Positions 53-63,444 of a stretch of DNA of 64,000 nucleotides are shown piece after piece (within the stretch, counting starts at the first letter, position 1; every line of letters starts with the position of its first letter). A program made the translations under genes and the position numbers. This stretch comes from an uncultured Candidatus Saccharibacteria bacterium (GTDB taxonomy: Bacteria; Patescibacteriota; WWE3; UBA101185; 2-01-FULL-41-18): the NCBI GenBank assembly GCA_964636285.1, contig CAZWQF010000001.1, positions 7,048 to 71,047 on the forward strand, given 5' to 3'. A model generated the notes under the pieces. That model worked only from the letters and a program-made list of their open reading frames with translations. It did no database searches and was not told where the DNA came from.

Positions 53-92
53 ACGGGCATCTCATCTCCTTTCGGTAAATGTGAATGCCCGT
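53..92 (-). terminator. GC-stem hairpin (acgggcat...atgcccgt) followed by T-tract on minus strand; member of 'aaaacgggc' hairpin family
   Basis: Inverted repeat 53-60/85-92 read directly; reverse complement gives stem-loop plus TTTT, downstream of minus-strand ORF 103-348. Confidence 0.6.
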
Positions 93-348: not shown

Positions 349-522
349 GTTGTTCTCCTGATCAGACTTGCGATTCTAATGAATGTTCTGGGTATTGTAC
401 TTACTGTTAAAAGTATCGTCAAGTACTATGGGGTACTTACTCTAGTTGCTAGAAAACTCAATAATCCATTCGATTCCGAATTTGTCTCTAAACATCCCCG
501 CATAGGAACCCCATGGGCTGTT

Positions 523-768
523 TTAACTTTCATTTACTCGCCCCATAACTTCTGGAACATCGTTGGCAATAAGAAGTGTGGAAGCGCCTATAGGTAGGGC
601 AATATACATTATTTTATTTTCTTCTTTTTCTGAAGGTTGGAAGTCAGCGTTTGCAATATCTTTGAAACGCACTACTTTAGAAAACTCTCCGCCGAATACA
701 GATTTATAAAAAGTAAACGCCTTCTGCGCATTGCCGTTGAAATTTATCCAAGTATTTAATGTTGCCAT
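523..768 (-). CDS. VOC-superfamily PhnB-like protein, apparently truncated (81 aa)
   Basis: N-terminus 'NFNGNAQKAFTFYKSVFGGEF' matches PhnB/3-demethylubiquinone methyltransferase-like VOC domain; length about half of typical. Confidence 0.45.
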   Translation of the reverse strand: MATLNTWINFNGNAQKAFTFYKSVFGGEFSKVVRFKDIANADFQPSEKEENKIMYIALPIGASTLLIANDVPEVMGRVNES

Positions 769-2684: not shown

Positions 2685-3068
2685 TGGCTCCGACGGTAGG
2701 ATTCGAACCTACAACCATCTCCTTACACCTTACCCCATTGTTTCCATTGGGAGTGGACTATATCATCACCTTATTCGTTTTAAGAATTTAGGTGTCGGGC
2801 GCTTAGTCTCTGAACCTTCCACAAAGAAAGTCTTCACCTTCTAGGGGCTTGGCTGCGAATTACCATACTAGATTGTGCTTACTAGCGTAGGCTTTTCGAC
2901 AATTCACCCGATTTTCACTTGTGGATTTCTCCACAAGGCTGCAGTAAACCTCCATGAATTTCTCTATGACAATTTGCACAAACAAGAATTTATAAGTTCT
3001 TGGACATAAAGATTCATGAGGTTGTCAATGTGCCACAGGGAGCCGCGCTACCGTTGCGCTACGTCGGA
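2685..3068 (-). tRNA. tRNA gene interrupted by ~309-nt group I intron in the anticodon loop; anticodon tentatively UGU (Thr). Exon 1 is 3037-3068, exon 2 is 2685-2727
   Basis: Minus-strand read: 5' exon tccgacg-ta-GCGCaacggtaGCGC-g-gctcc-ct; 3' exon tgtaa-ggaga-tggtt-gtaggTTCGAATcctac-cgtcgga-g-CCA; intron contains group I R element GGTTCAGAGACTAAG, S element GATATAGTCC, AGCCAAGCC motif and terminal G. Confidence 0.6.
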
Positions 3069-3217
3069 ATATGCCAGCTTTTTTCAAAGCAAGGGAATTT
3101 TAGCTTATTAGGACGGTGTTTTCAACAGAGATTTAATAAGAGTAGATCAAAGAATTTTAAATATGTTTAATGAAGCGAAAGGCGACGGGCTTAGGCAAAA
3201 AGCCCGTCGCTTTGAAG

Positions 3218-10853: not shown

Positions 10854-11586
10854 AGACCTTAAGGTTTCAGTAGAAGACAAAAGTATTCTAAAAGGCGTTT
10901 CATTGCATGTTAAGCATGGAGAAGCCCACGCAATAATGGGCCCTAACGGTTCTGGAAAAAGCACTCTAGCCCAAACTTTGATGGGCCATCCAAAATATAC
11001 CGTTGAGTCTGGAAGCGTTTCCCTTAACGGGAAAGACCTATTGGAGCTTGATACAACAACAAGAGCTTCTGAAGGTTTGTTTTTGGCTTTTCAGTATCCA
11101 AGTGAAATTCCGGGAGTTACAATCGCCAATTTTTTAAGACTTGTTTACAACAATAAAATGAAACGAACAGGTGGTAGGGAGCTGTCACCAGCTCTTTTTA
11201 GAAAAGTGCTTGAAGAAAAAATGGAAGAGCTTCATATGAATAAAGCTTTTGCTCAAAGATATCTAAACGAAGGGTTCTCAGGTGGAGAAAAAAAGAGAAT
11301 GGAAGTTTTGCAAATGGCTATTTTGGAGCCAAAGATTGCAATTCTTGACGAAACTGACTCGGGGCTTGATATCGACGCTCTTCAGATTGTTTCGCACGGA
11401 GTAAATCTTTTAAGAGAAAAGCTTGGAATGTCTGTGTTGATCATTACTCACTATGCAAGGATTTTAAATTACATAAAACCAGACCATGTCCATGTTTTCA
11501 AAGATGGAAAAGTTATCAGAGAGGGCGGGGCTGAGCTTGCTATTGAGCTTGAAAAAACTGGATATAAAAACTATGACTCAAACTAA
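10840..11586 (+). CDS. sufC: Fe-S cluster assembly ATPase SufC
   Basis: [42 protein letters not shown]; LSGGEKKR. Confidence 0.9.
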
Positions 11587-16886: not shown

Positions 16887-16963
16887 GCGCCTGTAGCTCA
16901 GGGGATTAGAGCGCAACTTTGCGGAAGTTGAAGTCGGAGGTTCGAATCCTCTCAGGCGCACCA
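16887..16963 (+). tRNA. tRNA-Arg (anticodon GCG by manual fold; anticodon assignment tentative)
   Basis: Cloverleaf: acceptor gcgcctg/caggcgc, D-arm gctcaggggattagagc, anticodon stem caact/agttg loop ttGCGga, T-arm ggaggttcgaatcctct, CCA. Confidence 0.7.
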
Positions 16964-17079
16964 ATCATTTAAATATTTGAAAACTAAAACTTAATGGTCT
17001 TGCATGAGATATATTTGTGAGGCCCTTTTGGTTACCCTCTAGGGCCTCACAAAACAGTGTTGCTGATGACACAGAAAGG

Positions 17080-17577
17080 TCACGAATTCTTCAGAAGTCT
17101 ACCGAGCCCGCCGACGGAGTCCTTACCCCTGAAAAACATGAAAAATACATCGGCCCCTCTCACAAGAGCTGACCCAACTGGGACCTCGCTTGCCCGAATT
17201 GGAGTTTGATAGTCATCCTCCTGCTTCAAGGCAACAACGGGAAAGCCGTCTCTTCCCATGCGTTTGTACAGAGTCCATTCTCCAAGGTTGTAGACTTTGG
17301 AAATTTCTGGATCCCACTGGCGGACTTTCCTCATCGTTCCTTCAAACGTGTCGCTTTGAGCCGCTCCTGACAGAAGGTGCATCCTGATCTCAAAATCAGG
17401 TGCCCAAAAAGCATCGAAAATCTCCCTATCCCCGAATGGCTCCTTTGTAATCTGCACAACACCCCCCAAATGAGGTCTTATAGTAGCAGACAACTGTGAT
17501 GCCCATCTTGACAACTCCTTATTAAGAAAGATTGGTCTGTAGTTAAAGACTATACCTGATTCATCCAAACAATTCAA
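17080..17577 (-). CDS. hypothetical protein, GC-enriched outlier (165 aa)
   Basis: ORF; composition differs from background. Confidence 0.4.
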   Translation of the reverse strand: MNCLDESGIVFNYRPIFLNKELSRWASQLSATIRPHLGGVVQITKEPFGDREIFDAFWAPDFEIRMHLLSGAAQSDTFEGTMRKVRQWDPEISKVYNLGEWTLYKRMGRDGFPVVALKQEDDYQTPIRASEVPVGSALVRGADVFFMFFRGKDSVGGLGRLLKNS

Positions 17578-17628
17578 ATACTATAAGTTATATGAAAAAA
17601 AGTGTTGCGTGATTCTATAAAAAAAGAA

Positions 17629-17687
17629 ACGGGCCCTCTTTGATCCAAACATGTGAGCTGAGACAGACATGATCAAAGGGGGCCCGT
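17629..17687 (-). terminator. large GC-stem hairpin (acgggccctctttgatc...gatcaaagggggcccgt) of the 'aaacgggc' family followed by T-tract on minus strand
   Basis: Inverted repeat read directly; RC ends ...gggcccgtttcttttttt. Confidence 0.6.
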
Positions 17688-17689
17688 AG

Positions 17690-18340
17690 ACAAGAGCAAG
17701 CAGCTTCTTATGGCGCTGGGATTCGCTGGGGAACTTGGGCTTGGCGGGATCTACTTGGGGGCCTCGGGTCTTCTAGCAACCTCAAACGCCGCCTAACCAA
17801 TGGGGCACTGAGTCCCTACTAGCTCCCCGCGTGGCTCCTGACCGGAACAGGTCAGTTCGCGCTTAGCCTTTACCATTCTCTCTCAATCCGATTTAGCTGC
17901 TTCTCTATATCCCAGATTAGGGTAAGTTCACTGAATTTCAGCAAACTTTTTTAGTACTGTGACTTTACAAAACTACCGAGTTCTTGTCAACTTTGTGGCT
18001 ACGTAGCCACAGGTAGTTTGCGCTTTGAAATGGGCCACCCACAAGCAAGTCTGCTTTGCTGGACTGAAGCGACTTTGCCTCTCTGTCCCAGACCTGCAGG
18101 TGGGTGGCCGGGCATCCGCGTGTACTGTTTGGAGTAGAGCCGAGCACTAAAGAAAAGTTTAAACCTACCACAGTGCCCCGTGAGTTTCTGGGGAGTAACT
18201 TAGGGGCTAGGAGTAATGTGGTCAAGTAAGAAACTTCTGGGATCTTTTTCTGTGCTCAGGTTGTACACGCAGTTTGCTTCGAGTGTTGTGCCAGAAAGTT
18301 TACCAAACCCTCAATACCTGTCAACATAACCTTGTAATAG
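17690..18340 (-). ncRNA. candidate structured GC-rich non-coding transcript (identity unknown)
   Basis: ~650 bp GC-rich stretch without convincing ORF; nested helices (aaactacc...gtggctacgtagccac...ggtagttt); plausible minus-strand promoter TTGACA-16/17-TAAACT near 18290-18324; intrinsic terminator at 17629-17687. Confidence 0.25.
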
Positions 18341-18370
18341 TACAATCCATGTTGCTATAATATACTTGCT

Positions 18371-18862
18371 ATGAAGAAGTTTCTAAAAACCGAATATCTA
18401 GCTTTCATGACTCCTATTATTGCCGCACTTATTTTTGGCTACTTTTTTGGGCATCCTCCCGTTAAGGGAAACTTATATTATGTAAAAAGAGTTGTTGACG
18501 GCGACACTATAGAACTCGCAACAGGCGCTACAGTAAGACTTATTGGTATTAACACTCCAGAGACTGTAAAACCCAATTCACCTGTAGAGTGTTTTGGCCC
18601 AGAGTCTTCAGAATTTAGTAAAAAACTAATGCAGAGAAAATACGTCAGGCTTGAATCTGATAAGGACAACATGGATCAGTATGGAAGAATTCTCAGGTAT
18701 GTTTATTTGGATGATCAAATGGTGAATATGGAACTTGTTCGTGAAGGGTTCGCAAAAGCTTACTACTTTTCACCAAATAATAAATACAAAACAGAGTTTG
18801 ACCTTGCACAGACAGAAGCACAGTCAACAGACAAAGGTCTTTGGGGAAAGTGTACTAAATAG
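18371..18862 (+). CDS. thermonuclease (staphylococcal nuclease/SNase family), membrane-anchored/secreted
   Basis: RLIGINTPE...ECFGPE...YGRILRYVY...ELVREGFA typical SNase residues; N-terminal TM. Confidence 0.85.
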   Translation: MKKFLKTEYLAFMTPIIAALIFGYFFGHPPVKGNLYYVKRVVDGDTIELATGATVRLIGINTPETVKPNSPVECFGPESSEFSKKLMQRKYVRLESDKDNMDQYGRILRYVYLDDQMVNMELVREGFAKAYYFSPNNKYKTEFDLAQTEAQSTDKGLWGKCTK

Positions 18863-18871
18863 TTATTAGGG

Positions 18872-18945
18872 CCGGGGAGGGCGCCCGAACGACCGCCCGC
18901 AGACCCGTAAGGGTCGAGGACAGGGAGGAAGGGTGCCCTCCCTGT
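18872..18945. repeat. GC-rich structured intergenic repeat, copy A (inverted partner at 34437-34503)
   Basis: Core 'cgaacgaccgcccgcagacccgtaagggtcgaggacagggagg' matches reverse complement of 34437-34503 with about 3 mismatches; lies at a convergent gene junction. Confidence 0.7.
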
Positions 18946-18950
18946 GCTAG

Positions 18951-42940: not shown

Positions 42941-43754
42941 TCACTACATTTTTTAACAAGTTTAAGATTGTGAGAGGACCTACTCCTCCAGGTACTGGTG
43001 TGGCATACCCTGCTCTGCTTCCAAGTAAAATTTCCTCAGATGCTTCTGGATTCGGAGCCCCGCAGTCAACAATGAACGCCCCCTCTTTTATGGATTCGTT
43101 TGAAATTACATTTTGTTTTCCGGTTGCTAATACAATAATATCTGCAGTTTTTGAAATTTCCTCTATTTTTATGGACTTGGAGTGGAGAATTGTAACAGAC
43201 GAATTTTTTGAGAGCAGAAGTGCCGCTAATGGCTCTCCAACAATTGTTGACCTTCCAAAAATTACAGCATGCTTACCTTCTAATGAAAAGTTGTCTTGAG
43301 ATGTTAAAAGATCTATCACTGCAAGAGCGGTTGCAGGGGCCAGGGCTGCTTTTGAGTTTTGAAATAAAAGACCAAGGTTTCTAGAGGAAAGTCCATCTAC
43401 ATCTTTTTCTTGTTCAATTAGATTTGATGCCTTTGTAAAATCTAGGTGTTTTGAAATTGGAGCTTGAATAAAAAACCCATCAACTTCTTTATTATTGTTT
43501 AGCTCGATAATTTTATTTTCTAGTTCTGGTTGTGTCACCTCTCTAGGAAGTTTTGTGAGAATTGCATTTATTCCCACTTCCGTTGCTTTTTTAAGTTTCA
43601 TTCGAACATAAATTGTTGAAGCCTGGCCATCACCAACTTGTAGGATGTGTAAAGTTAGCTTTCTGCCAGCTTTCTGCTCAAAGGCTAATGCTCCATTTTT
43701 TATGTCTGTAAAAATGTCTTTTGAGATTTCTTGGGAATTTACAACTTTTGTCAC
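42909..43754 (-). CDS. folD: bifunctional methylenetetrahydrofolate dehydrogenase/cyclohydrolase
   Basis: GRSTIVGEPLAALL and PVPGGVGPLT motifs. Confidence 0.9.
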   Translation of the reverse strand: MTKVVNSQEISKDIFTDIKNGALAFEQKAGRKLTLHILQVGDGQASTIYVRMKLKKATEVGINAILTKLPREVTQPELENKIIELNNNKEVDGFFIQAPISKHLDFTKASNLIEQEKDVDGLSSRNLGLLFQNSKAALAPATALAVIDLLTSQDNFSLEGKHAVIFGRSTIVGEPLAALLLSKNSSVTILHSKSIKIEEISKTADIIVLATGKQNVISNESIKEGAFIVDCGAPNPEASEEILLGSRAGYATPVPGGVGPLTILNLLKNVVIAGERKYGSF

Positions 43755-43853
43755 AATGGAATTATATCCCAGATGGGAAGAGTAAGGCAGACTGGGGTTG
43801 GTAGAGGAGACGACAAAGCGCTCGTACCAACCCCATATGAGGTTGTGTCAAAG

Positions 43854-44014
43854 TCATTCTCCTGAAATGGCGTGAGTGCAGAACAGCACAAATGCCAAAC
43901 CAAGAGCTACCACACTCTTGATGTCGCAGTTTGGAGTAGCGTGCACATAGACGCACACCCCTCCGATTGTCAGTACTGCGACAACCAGGCAACCAACCAC
44001 CTTAAGTTTACTCA
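43854..44014 (-). CDS. small GC-rich hydrophobic protein (53 aa) with strong SD
   Basis: GGCTAGGAGGCC-N5-ATG (MSKLKVVGCLVVAVL...); GC-rich island inserted between folD and rpmH; followed by ggggttggta...taccaacccc hairpin. Confidence 0.4.
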
Positions 44015-44130
44015 TTTGAGGCCTCCTAGCCCTACTAAACCTATAGTAATTGTAAAATATCTGCCAAAATAAGTCAACTACTATGGGGCTAGTTGACTGG
44101 ATACGGTTCATATAGTTTAATAGCTTCGTT

Positions 44131-62590: not shown

Positions 62591-62908
62591 TTATATACCC
62601 ACGGTTGTCCTTGCACTATCAATGTTTCCTCCTAAGGCACTAACAATTATAGATCGGATTGACATTGCAGCTATGACTATGACAAAACCTATAATCGCAT
62701 TGGTGAGCCACTCTCTTGCAACCATCGTGTTTGCTTTATCCCCTTGGCTCATGATGTATTTAATACCACCAAGAATTAAATAAATAATTGTAAGTGCAAT
62801 TCCTGAGCCGAGTGCAATATTGTACACTACTCCAAAAATTGAACTTAAACTTGTAAATCTATTGTTGAGAGGGTCAACAATATTTGAATCTACTTGTGCA
62901 TATACCAT
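62591..62908 (-). CDS. VirB2/TrbC-like pilin paralog 4
   Basis: LGGIKYIMSQGDKANTMVAREWLTNAIIGF; no in-frame upstream start (in-frame TAA 8 codons upstream). Confidence 0.55.
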   Translation of the reverse strand: MVYAQVDSNIVDPLNNRFTSLSSIFGVVYNIALGSGIALTIIYLILGGIKYIMSQGDKANTMVAREWLTNAIIGFVIVIAAMSIRSIIVSALGGNIDSARTTVGI

Positions 62909-63020
62909 ACTTTTATTATAACCACCTTTTTATTTCTGTAAACTCGAATTACACTCGTATCTATTAAAACCAAAACAGGGCGGTTGTCCGCCCTGTACAT
63001 TGGAAAGAAATCAGTTTTTA

Positions 63021-63344
63021 TTAAGCGGGTGTTACTCCACTCACTGCAGTGTTGGATGCGCCTAGAAGATTTCCTACGATTGATCTAATCACGAATGCTC
63101 CAAGGACTACAATAAAACCAATGATTGCGTTTGTGAGCCATTCTCTTGCTACTTGAGTATTAGCTTTATCCCCTTGGCTCATGATGTATTTAATACCACC
63201 AAGAATTAAATAAATAATTGTAAGTGCAATACCAACACCCAGCACTACATTCATTATCATACCAAATAGATTTGGTAGGTTGGTTAATGTTGAACCTTCT
63301 AATGGATTTGTTGGGGTTACATCTACATTTTGTGCGAATACCAT
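63021..63344 (-). CDS. VirB2/TrbC-like pilin paralog 5 (recent tandem duplicate of 62591-62908)
   Basis: 64-bp identical DNA block (62737-62800 = 63167-63230) and near-identical protein core. Confidence 0.55.
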   Translation of the reverse strand: MVFAQNVDVTPTNPLEGSTLTNLPNLFGMIMNVVLGVGIALTIIYLILGGIKYIMSQGDKANTQVAREWLTNAIIGFIVVLGAFVIRSIVGNLLGASNTAVSGVTPA

Positions 63345-63444
63345 GTTACACCTCCTTCAATAGTTTCAATAACTATAAATAAGTTTATACTATTGTTCTT
63401 GAGTGTCAAGAACAGCAGAGTATAGCACATTGTACATTGCATTG

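Follow-up and report, generated by a model that had tools for sequence, protein, structure and literature searches.

A candidate non-coding RNA gene in a GC-rich islet flanked by tRNA-Arg and nuclease genes in a WWE3-like bacterium

The islet described here occupies positions 17000-18345 of the window (the whole stretch of 64,000 nucleotides that was analysed), between a tRNA-Arg(gcg) gene (16887..16963, plus strand), which forms its left boundary, and a nuclease (SNase) gene. Its GC content is 0.47-0.59 against a window mean of 0.392, and the GC-rich island of 1.3 kb described in an earlier note was borne out both by 300-nt windows over 16950-18300 (0.46-0.51) and by 200-nt windows, which reached 0.59. 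The contents of the islet are, in order, a non-coding unit of about 675 nt and then a frameshifted gene, near the tRNA gene. The non-coding stretch has a GC content of 0.51, exceeding that of the genome by 12 points; no other ORF-free gap in the window is as long, and none of the others is GC-rich. A tRNA-Ser/Arg/Ser/Ser cluster surrounds the unit, and the distance from tRNA-Arg to tRNA-Ser(cga), only 18 nt in a WWE3 relative, is 3.5 kb in the window. A perfect hairpin of 13 bp (17014..17053) is found between the stop codon of the frameshifted gene and tRNA-Arg, with a folding z of about -6 on both strands and no clear T-run on either. At the islet border, no repeat of the 3' end of tRNA-Arg was found that could mark an attachment site.

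The frameshifted gene lies on the minus strand (17080..17520), with the Shine-Dalgarno (SD) sequence AAGGAG at 17520-17515, an ATG at 17506 in the layout AAGGAG-N8-ATG, and a stop at 17080. A run of six G (17467-17462) contains one G too many, and removing it gives a product of 141 aa. The promoter of the gene (17549..17577, minus strand, TTGAAT-17-TATAGT, 9/12) overlaps the TTG at which the 165-aa ORF would "start", an overlap that speaks against initiation there. Homologs of the ORF (32 at E<=1e-3) are all about 140 aa long and cover its residues from about 37 to 157, while the corrected product aligns end to end with about 30 uncharacterised homologs at 26-42% identity, its N-terminus, which the ATG frame encodes, being part of the alignment. 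Invariant columns in the alignment with the family representatives P0122-P0152 are A105, P109, L114, F121, F122 and G127. With the alignment, AF2 modelled the corrected 141 aa at a pLDDT of 95.7, compared with 39.1, which is uninformative, for the uncorrected ORF alone. After the one-G correction the flanking gene is a member of this uncharacterised family of about 140 aa, which now has a confident predicted structure. Fold searches with the model gave no convincing analogue, the protein matched no PADLOC or Pfam family, and the family was not found in viral contigs, phages or plasmids. Upstream of the homologs, at the three loci examined, one contig family had an AT-rich spacer of 309 nt and two had adjacent protein genes; none carried a comparable RNA. 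The GC-rich ORF at 17080-17577 pointed out earlier is present as an open frame, but its gene model was wrong in start and in frame; the correction of the annotated 162/165-aa ORF to a frameshifted 141-aa family member is a firm result of practical use. Elsewhere in the window, the VOC-like gene at 523-768 seems disrupted as well.

The predicted non-coding transcript (17615..18290, minus strand, about 675 nt) is delimited by a promoter, P1, and an intrinsic terminator, T1. P1 (18297..18324, minus strand) consists of TTGACA (18324-18319), a 16-nt spacer with a TG extension, and TAAACT (18302-18297); the minus-strand promoter-like sequence noted earlier was confirmed as a 10/12 match with TG, with a predicted transcription start near 18290. 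Of the 31 sites scoring at least 10/12 in 128 kb of strand, three have a perfect TTGACA -35, P1 being one of them. The arrangement TTGACA-16-TAAACT recurs at 63409 ahead of an SD-led gene of 107 aa, and P1 itself stands back to back with the SNase promoter (18332-18361). An internal promoter-like site, P2 (17962..17990, minus strand, TTGACA-17-TAAAGT, 10/12), follows directly downstream of a palindrome; this putative promoter, if firing, would yield a shorter RNA of about 330 nt. T1 (17617..17687, minus strand) has its arms within 17687-17629, followed by UUCUUUUUUU at 17628-17617; each arm of the hairpin is 17 nt long, 16 of these 17 positions being paired, and there is a U7 tract. It is one of five ACGGGC...GCCCGT hairpins in the window (53-92, 878-926, 1659-1699, 3185-3207 and 17629-17687), against a chance expectation of 0-0.02, which confirms the assignment of the terminator to an "aaacgggc" family made in the earlier note. 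The other members terminate GC-rich minus-strand units, and three of them each end a unit with promoter, SD and ATG. Promoter and intrinsic terminator of the unit are thus oriented alike and belong to types that recur in this genome, as expected of an independent transcription unit. This distinctive hairpin family is a firm and practically useful marker of the GC-rich accessory cassettes of the genome. Integron attC sites have RYYYAAC and GTTRRRY cores flanking an imperfect palindrome, with IntI nearby; an attC reading of the hairpin family was rejected, as RYYYAAC fits one of four hairpins and GTTRRRY in the same orientation none of four, and all have a terminator-type T-run.

Between promoter and terminator no SD-led ORF of at least 10 aa was present on either strand. 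The only ORF of at least 60 aa within 17690-18340 is a TTG-started frame of 86 aa (17965-18225) without SD, in agreement with the earlier statement that the region has no convincing ORF. Stops per 255 codons numbered 7-16 in all six frames, equal to the random expectation, and 3-base periodicity was absent (P3 ratio 0.49 versus 0.96 for shuffles) by a test of low power here, in which the real 141-aa gene scores just 1.66 (p about 0.1). Six-frame comparisons with Pfam, PHROG, NCBIfam and PDB gave no match, nor did a six-frame word-indexed search of 5.8 billion proteins at E<=10. The latter negative is weak, since the same search, which can miss homologs at 30-45% identity, missed true homologs of the neighbouring ORF. 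The stretch 17690-18290 hence shows none of the marks of a protein-coding gene or pseudogene that were considered, i.e., SD start, open frame or fragments, periodicity and protein similarity. The label non-coding is in this way supported by SD, periodicity, stop-count and six-frame family tests, and a pseudogene running through the region finds no backing in the family searches or in periodicity.

Known RNA classes were sought with Rfam 15, where a match was counted when the covariance-model score reached at least the gathering threshold of the family. No match at this level was found in the islet, while the same scan picked up four tRNAs plus a group I intron in other parts of the window. The isolated 611 nt (17690-18300) gave zero Rfam matches at E<=10, and the scan of the islet at E<=10 gave only hairpin noise. 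The families without a match include RNase P, tmRNA, SRP, 6S, OLE, ROOL, GOLLD, HEARO and raiA, as well as group I and II introns, riboswitches and T-box. The lack of likeness to RNase P, tmRNA and SRP RNA noticed earlier by eye therefore extends to all of Rfam. Bacterial RNase P RNA is recognised by its P4 helix, conserved flanking motifs and type A or B architecture; GAGGAAAGUCCGCC at about 17330 (minus strand) was rejected as a chance match inside the protein gene with confirmed homologs, and the RNaseP_bact_a model scored 7.9 bits from a terminal hairpin alone.

Folding of the body of the unit, with the terminator left out, gave a z of -4.41 on the minus strand (reached by 0 of 60 shuffles); on the plus strand z was -2.03, and in coding sequences of high GC, used as controls, it ranged from -0.1 to -1.6. 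A z of -4.3 or lower was reached by 2 of 38 background windows, which places the body's -4.4 within a tail of about 5%. The signal is limited to the 5' half with four hairpins (18277-17924), local 150-nt windows being significant only near 17900-18150 and at terminators. These four domains, all on the minus strand, are each stabler there than on the plus strand. Domain I (18112..18277) is a rod-like imperfect hairpin of 166 nt, with about 52 bp in 9 helices, pair probabilities of 0.78-1.0, and a z of -4.2 versus -2.2 on the plus strand, for boundaries set after folding. Domain II (18033..18109), a 77-nt hairpin of 28 bp with the base GGCCACCCAC/GUGGGUGGCC, has a pair probability of about 1.0 (z -5.7 minus, -4.5 plus). 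Domain III (17967..18023; z -3.5 minus, -3.0 plus) is a Y-shaped element around the palindrome TGTGGCTACGTAGCCACA (17994-18011), which was confirmed as perfect over 18 bp and occurs once in the window, with 0.02 copies expected. The palindrome's loop, ACGT, is itself palindromic, and a binding site at the DNA level is thus equally possible. Domain IV (17924..17948) is an 11-bp hairpin (z -4.5 minus, -2.9 plus). The GC-richest part, Domain V (17693..17906, minus strand, GC up to 0.59), has a 12-bp closing helix in the minimum free energy (MFE) fold, and this 3' segment of 214 nt is no stabler than shuffles (z -0.8 minus, -1.2 plus). GNRA and UNCG loops and other hallmarks of ornate RNAs were absent from the predicted fold. 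The earlier term "structured" is hence weakly suggested by the strand-biased z, which lies within the background tail, with Domain V behaving like shuffled sequence.

Relatives of the unit were looked for by several routes. The islet gave no blastn match among phages and plasmids, and scanning viral contigs for exact copies of three seeds gave none either. The 18-nt palindrome had nine matches in metagenome contigs, all with unrelated flanks. Synteny through the neighbouring 197-aa protein led to a single WWE3 locus in which the islet is absent, and through SNase to a closest relative at 59% identity with unrelated upstream DNA. Exact-protein look-ups for strain variants returned the same sample only; the sole other copy of the unit is identical DNA from that sample, SRR12762304, which is the only one where the organism is seen. 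A structured non-coding RNA class in the Breaker/Rfam sense means multiple diverged homologs with compensatory base-pair changes; as the collections searched hold no homolog, there is neither covariation nor any sign of selection to draw on. Known from one genome and lacking homologs, the unit is not yet separable from transcribed junk, and its present value is that of a flagged candidate.

We regard 17615..18290 as plausibly a non-coding RNA gene specific to this strain, though not a proven one. Promoter and terminator signals, a lack of coding features and strand-biased folding characterise it, and we infer that it is transcribed. In the reading we tentatively prefer, with confidence somewhat short of even, the minus-strand stretch 18324-17617 is a non-coding transcription unit in its own right. 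The sigma-70-type promoter P1 would drive an RNA of about 675 nt, whose first 350 nt or so would fold into four consecutive stable hairpins (the 52-bp rod, the 28-bp hairpin, the palindrome-centred Y and the 11-bp hairpin), and which would end at a strong intrinsic terminator like those that close the other GC-rich accessory cassettes of the genome. The RNA would stay untranslated, and the unit would belong to a strain-specific islet, beside a recently frameshifted accessory gene with its own promoter. Such an RNA may act in trans via its long imperfect duplex arms, protein-binding or RNase-processed, and not as a leader. Of the new structured RNA suggested in the earlier note, the non-coding character, the bounding promoter and terminator and the absence of an Rfam match stood, whereas the structured part drew slight support. 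The stronger proposal, that the unit is a new lineage-restricted large non-coding RNA of a WWE3-like candidate-phyla-radiation bacterium, with its own promoter, functional via rod-like hairpins and one of several GC-rich accessory cassettes sharing a terminator hairpin family, we regard as quite unlikely. Should the transcript prove real and functional, the poorly studied, uncultivated bacteria of that radiation would have yielded a new large RNA.

The main rival, somewhat unlikely in our judgement, is an inert relic: decayed horizontally acquired DNA, such as a dead cassette or mobile-element fragment, with a surviving or fortuitous promoter and terminator, a functionless transcript, and hairpins that are chance or left-over DNA inverted repeats. 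The islet does occupy a variable position separating two tRNA genes that neighbour each other in the WWE3 relative, all its content is rare or orphan, the neighbouring gene is frameshifted and the VOC-like gene seemingly disrupted too; the folding z falls in the background tail and the periodicity test had little power. Yet 7-16 stops in all six frames would need long decay, and GC remains at 0.51-0.59 against 0.39; P1 and the T1 arms are intact, the adjacent gene is one base from a working copy, and family similarity appears in no frame. The retention of GC 0.51 in a genome of 0.39, together with a neighbour intact save one indel, argues against long neutral decay. The stability of domains I-IV is moreover biased to the transcribed strand, a bias that DNA inverted repeats would not yield. 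A coding interpretation could appeal to plus-strand frame 0 (17673-18327), whose four stops are all TAG, with no TAA or TGA, and remote homologs could have escaped the word-indexed search. The translation of this frame, however, abounds in Ser, Leu, Cys and Trp and has few charged residues, and TAG serves as stop in the rest of the window. With no promoter or SD on the plus strand, no periodicity and no profile match or similarity in any frame, a TAG-recoded plus-strand gene was ruled against, and unrecognised coding sequence as a whole, a very divergent pseudogene included, is scarcely probable.

A division into two smaller units with regulation at the DNA level is improbable, although P2 has a perfect TTGACA and its -35 is abutted by the palindrome, loop included, and although the structure signal is confined to 18277-17924. 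P1 would then make an RNA of about 260 nt that comprises domains I-II and stops at the GC-rich hairpin of domain II, and the palindrome would be an operator or activator site for P2, whose RNA would end at T1. Domain II is followed merely by CAUUUC, a poor T-run, the islet has no regulator gene, and P2 falls within one of the helices predicted for the long RNA; short of transcript mapping, no feature discriminates two units from one transcript. A long cis-regulatory leader, the other possibility raised earlier, would sense a signal in its 600 nt and control read-through of T1 into the 141-aa gene, and the order of promoter, long structured RNA, terminator and gene on one strand does resemble riboswitch or attenuator leaders and type III toxin-antitoxin loci. 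Leaders of this kind show an alternative antiterminator pairing, a gene that depends on read-through, and conservation of leader with gene. Here the gene is equipped with a separate promoter, SD and ATG 40-110 nt past T1, T1 is a long near-perfect stem with U7 and no competing pairing evident on inspection of the MFE fold, riboswitch and T-box families are unmatched, and tandem repeats are absent. As the homolog loci, with their AT-rich spacer or adjacent protein genes, have no comparable upstream RNA, the leader reading is unsupported and appears very improbable.

OLE, ROOL and GOLLD were found by the same GC-rich-gap logic that singles out this stretch. In AT-rich genomes, structured RNAs are over-represented in long intergenic regions of high GC (PMC6429828, PMC8723152), and like the GC-IGR/DIMPL candidates (PMC6429828, PMC8723152, PMC11109978) the unit is a long, GC-rich, ORF-free gap in an AT-rich genome, and shares with them a promoter and an intrinsic terminator; its transcribed strand also folds better than shuffles, at a z inside the background tail. 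Those candidates are, however, accepted only with covariation in multiple homologs, whereas the unit has no homolog in the collections searched. Type III toxin-antitoxin loci pair an antitoxin RNA of tandem repeats of about 34-45 nt with a ToxN/AbiE-type endoribonuclease. The locus is ToxIN-like in placing promoter, non-coding RNA, intrinsic terminator and small protein gene on one strand; it differs in that its protein gene carries a separate promoter and SD, and in that homologs of this gene elsewhere lack the RNA. This assignment was rejected, the RNA having no tandem repeats and no toxin family being matched. ROOL (RF03087) and GOLLD (RF01998) are stand-alone units of about 600-800 nt, often tRNA-adjacent, in accessory or mobile DNA. 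Neither model matched the unit even at E<=10, and it is predicted to fold as successive rod-like hairpins, where their architecture is multi-junction and pseudoknotted, but in being of the same size class, standing alone and lying inside a tRNA cluster the unit resembles them.

The GC-rich islet at 17000-18345 has a GC content of 0.46-0.51 in 300-nt windows and up to 0.59 in 200-nt windows, against a window mean of 0.392. It is bordered on one side by a tRNA-Arg(gcg) gene found by tRNA scan (16887-16963), and on the other by a gene of the staphylococcal nuclease family (18371-18862). Islet, nuclease gene, MGMT-like gene and MgtE-like gene occupy the 3.5 kb between tRNA-Arg and tRNA-Ser(cga). 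An adjacent 197-aa protein had its sole genome match in a MAG of candidate division WWE3 (36% identity), and judged by sequence the source organism is WWE3-like. The MAG has the same tRNA order as the window, i.e., Ser(gct), protein gene, Arg(gcg), Ser(cga), Ser(gga), with only 18 nt between tRNA-Arg and tRNA-Ser(cga). Since these 18 nt correspond to 3.5 kb in the window, the slot is variable. The nuclease and MGMT-like genes are convergent, and the sequence between them (18865-18950) holds a cluster of GC-rich hairpins (e.g., CAGGGAGG...CCTCCCTG and GACCC...GGGTC), probably a bidirectional terminator region. Elsewhere in the window, the 632 nt at 10854-11485 contained no ORF of at least 70 aa at a GC content of 0.39, equal to the genome average.

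The candidate RNA is a predicted minus-strand transcript of approximately 675 nt (18290-17615), and the signals that the earlier note had claimed for it were all present. The promoter P1, TTGACA-16-TAAACT at 18324..18297, was a 10/12 match with a TG extension. Among 31 promoter-like sites of at least 10/12 on both strands of the whole window, a perfect TTGACA was found in only three, at 18324, at 17990 (the internal site P2, TTGACA-17-TAAAGT, 17990-17962) and at 63409. The last was identical to P1 in hexamers and 16-nt spacer, and approximately 45 nt downstream of it lay GAAGGAGG-N6-ATG and a gene for a 107-aa membrane protein. As the same form precedes an SD-led gene there, TTGACA-16-TAAACT is plausibly a working promoter in the source genome. 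The gene driven by it (63344->63021) is one of two paralogous small membrane (pilin-like) genes on the minus strand of 62591-63409; the other is 62908->62591, and an internal stretch is identical in both.

The terminator T1 is a hairpin at 17629-17687 with 17-nt arms, paired at 16 of 17 positions and followed by UUCUUUUUUU on the minus strand. The proposed "aaacgggc" family to which it belongs is real: hairpins with an ACGGGC...GCCCGT stem base were found at 53-92, 878-926, 1659-1699, 3185-3207 and 17629-17687, where 0-0.02 were expected. Each of the five lies where a GC-rich unit on the minus strand has its 3' end, and those at 53-92 and 1659-1699 are nearly identical over their full length. 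Three of the other four end consecutive GC-rich minus-strand cassettes of up to 63% GC (348->103, 1513->965 and 2048->1758), each with a canonical sigma-70-like promoter, SD and ATG, which encode orphans of 81, 182 and 96 aa, respectively, lacking Pfam domains. The unit under study has the layout of these cassettes, promoter, GC-rich body and family terminator, minus the coding part.

The palindrome TGTGGCTACGTAGCCACA (17994-18011) was perfect and occurred as a single copy in the window (0.02 expected). A single scan of metagenome contigs gave nine matches to it, all with flanks unrelated to the window, and in other organisms the sequence may serve as a binding site or form a repeat. In four such contigs (L009, L011, L014 and L015) it sits inside a longer palindrome, tgtacacatTGTGGCTACGTAGCCACAatgtgtaca, and in two others (L010 and L013) it is present twice.

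The claim that 17690-18340 has no convincing ORF held, the only sizeable frame being one of 86 aa with a TTG start and no SD. No SD-preceded ORF of at least 10 aa was found on either strand of 17560-18345. The six frames had 7-16 stops per approximately 255 codons, by our estimate about what random sequence of the same composition would give, and the longest open run was 97 codons. Three-base periodicity was absent (P3 ratio 0.49, against 0.96 in shuffles, and at most 1.3 in every 180-nt sub-window); the test has little power for the small GC-rich genes of this sequence, and for the real gene of 141 aa next to the unit it gave only 1.66. Six-frame translations searched against Pfam, PHROGs, NCBIfam and PDB sequences at E<=1 gave only two sub-threshold noise matches. 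Among 5.8 billion proteins, a word-indexed search gave no match at E<=10, which is a weak negative because the same tool missed the true homologs of the flanking gene. In frame 0 of the plus strand, all four stops within approximately 218 codons (17673-18327) are TAG, which we judged to be chance, since promoter, SD, protein-like composition and similarity were all lacking. We give hidden coding in this stretch hardly any chance.

The check by cmscan that the earlier note had proposed covered all 4227 Rfam families and gave no gathering-level match in the islet. At E<=10 only hairpin noise appeared on 1.5 kb, with no match on the isolated 611-nt body, and ARAGORN found no tmRNA. RNase P RNA, suggested by GAGGAAAGUCCGCC near 17330, was rejected, as the protein gene in which that motif lies has confirmed homologs and the Rfam model scored only 7.9 bits, on an unrelated hairpin. 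The candidate RNA is a member of no described RNA family. Elsewhere in the window, Rfam Intron_gpI scored 103.6 bits at 2734-2957, within a minus-strand tRNA gene (2685-3068) that is interrupted in its anticodon loop by a group I intron of 309 nt. This gene escaped the default tRNA scan, and ARAGORN with introns allowed named it tRNA-Thr(tgt).

Folding of the body without terminator (17690-18290) gave -211 kcal/mol on the minus strand with z -4.41, and none of 60 dinucleotide shuffles was as stable; the plus strand gave z -2.03 and three GC-rich coding controls -0.1 to -1.6. Among 38 background windows of 601 nt from the same sequence (mean z -0.83, sd 1.5) two reached -4.3 and -5.2, so that a z of -4.4 is approximately a 5% event. 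The lowest of them (-5.15) starts at 43400 on the minus strand; a small minus-strand cassette at 43790-44077 comprises a TTGACT-17-TACAAT promoter and an SD, a hydrophobic peptide of 49 aa, and a hairpin (GGGGTTGGTA/TACCAACCCC). The MFE model comprises five domains, and their z values are given here for minus and plus strand, respectively. Domain I (18277-18112) is a 166-nt rod of approximately 52 bp (-4.2, -2.2), Domain II (18109-18033) a hairpin of 28 bp (-5.7, -4.5), Domain III (18023-17967) a Y around the palindrome (-3.5, -3.0), Domain IV (17948-17924) a hairpin of 11 bp (-4.5, -2.9), and Domain V (17906-17693) a 214-nt multibranch (-0.8, -1.2). Domains I-IV each beat shuffles in stability, more so on the minus strand, with boundaries picked after folding. 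In sliding 150-nt windows z was clearly negative only at terminators and at 17900-18150, and the loops of the predicted fold included no GNRA or UNCG tetraloops. The folding evidence for the earlier description of the transcript as structured is therefore suggestive; it agrees in strand with promoter and terminator and is limited to the 5' half, Domain V folding no better than shuffles.

The GC-rich ORF formerly drawn at 17080-17577 proved to be a wrong model of a frameshifted gene (17520-17080, minus strand). A promoter-like TTGAAT-17-TATAGT (17577-17549) overlaps the TTG start of the 165-aa ORF, and downstream of it AAGGAG-N8-ATG (ATG at 17506) opens a separate frame that stops after 26 codons. 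When the G6 run at 17467-17462 is shortened by one G, this ATG is in phase with the long frame and the product has 141 aa. In an exhaustive HMMER search, 32 homologs were retrieved, with E values as low as 2e-18 and lengths of 130-160 aa in nearly all cases; their matches cover residues ~37-157 of the 165-aa frame. An alignment of the corrected protein with these homologs runs from end to end and takes in an N-terminal V..Y.T..GG motif encoded in the ATG frame. AlphaFold2 with alignment gave the corrected protein pLDDT 95.7 and pTM 0.85, with residues 4-10 as a strand, and the uncorrected ORF alone pLDDT 39. The G6 run is also present in the Logan contig, so that the extra G is seen in more than one assembly, although the same reads underlie both. 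The ~140-aa family also matches 13 and 6 repeated stretches of two large proteins, P0139 (5558 aa) and P0140 (689 aa), respectively, and its domain may serve very large proteins as a reusable module. A VOC/glyoxalase-like gene at 440-768 (minus strand) also seems disrupted, with its N-terminal 81 aa in one frame (weak PF00903 match) and a typical C-terminal end (…FGIEWIIEF…) downstream in another.

DNA identical to the islet was found only in the Logan assembly of one run, SRR12762304. Neither blastn against phages and plasmids nor three seed scans of viral contigs gave a homolog. The contig of the nearest nuclease homolog among 15 billion proteins (59% identical) keeps the nuclease/MGMT synteny with unrelated sequence upstream, where in other relatives AT-rich spacers or different genes were found.

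The unit may be an independent non-coding transcription unit, a reading we hold tentatively and at slightly under even chance. In its favour, the expression signals are intact, point the right way and are of types that the genome itself uses; the GC-rich body, in a compact genome, has no coding features; and the stability of the hairpins is biased by strand. We propose that such an RNA would act in trans through long imperfect duplexes. Counted against function were the absence of homologs from the collections searched, a z within the background tail, the unstructured 3' half, the variable slot and at least one broken gene nearby. That the unit is instead an inert relic is rather unlikely; against a long-decayed cassette speak a GC still 12 points above the genome, undamaged expression signals and a neighbouring gene that a single base separates from an intact one. 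An arrangement of two units, or an operator, around P2 and the palindrome, which lie side by side, is improbable. The cis-regulatory leader with attenuator offered by the earlier note would place the RNA in front of the flanking gene, and is quite improbable. That gene comes with a promoter and SD of its own, T1 has a long near-perfect stem and a U7 tract, and no pairing competing with T1 is evident in the fold. Upstream of three homologs of the gene we found a 309-nt AT-rich spacer (GC 0.37) beside ruvB, or small adjoining protein genes, and no resemblance to the candidate RNA. These observations count against a leader as well as against a conserved RNA-protein module.

The correction of the gene model and the terminator family are the solid results, and the candidate RNA cannot yet be told apart from transcribed junk. 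Type III toxin-antitoxin systems are conserved RNA-protein modules, whereas the three homolog loci of the flanking gene carry no RNA like the one here, and the absence of tandem repeats in the candidate RNA also excludes this assignment. If real, the unit would be a new example, so far from a single genome, of a known kind: large, GC-rich genes for non-coding RNA in AT-rich bacteria.
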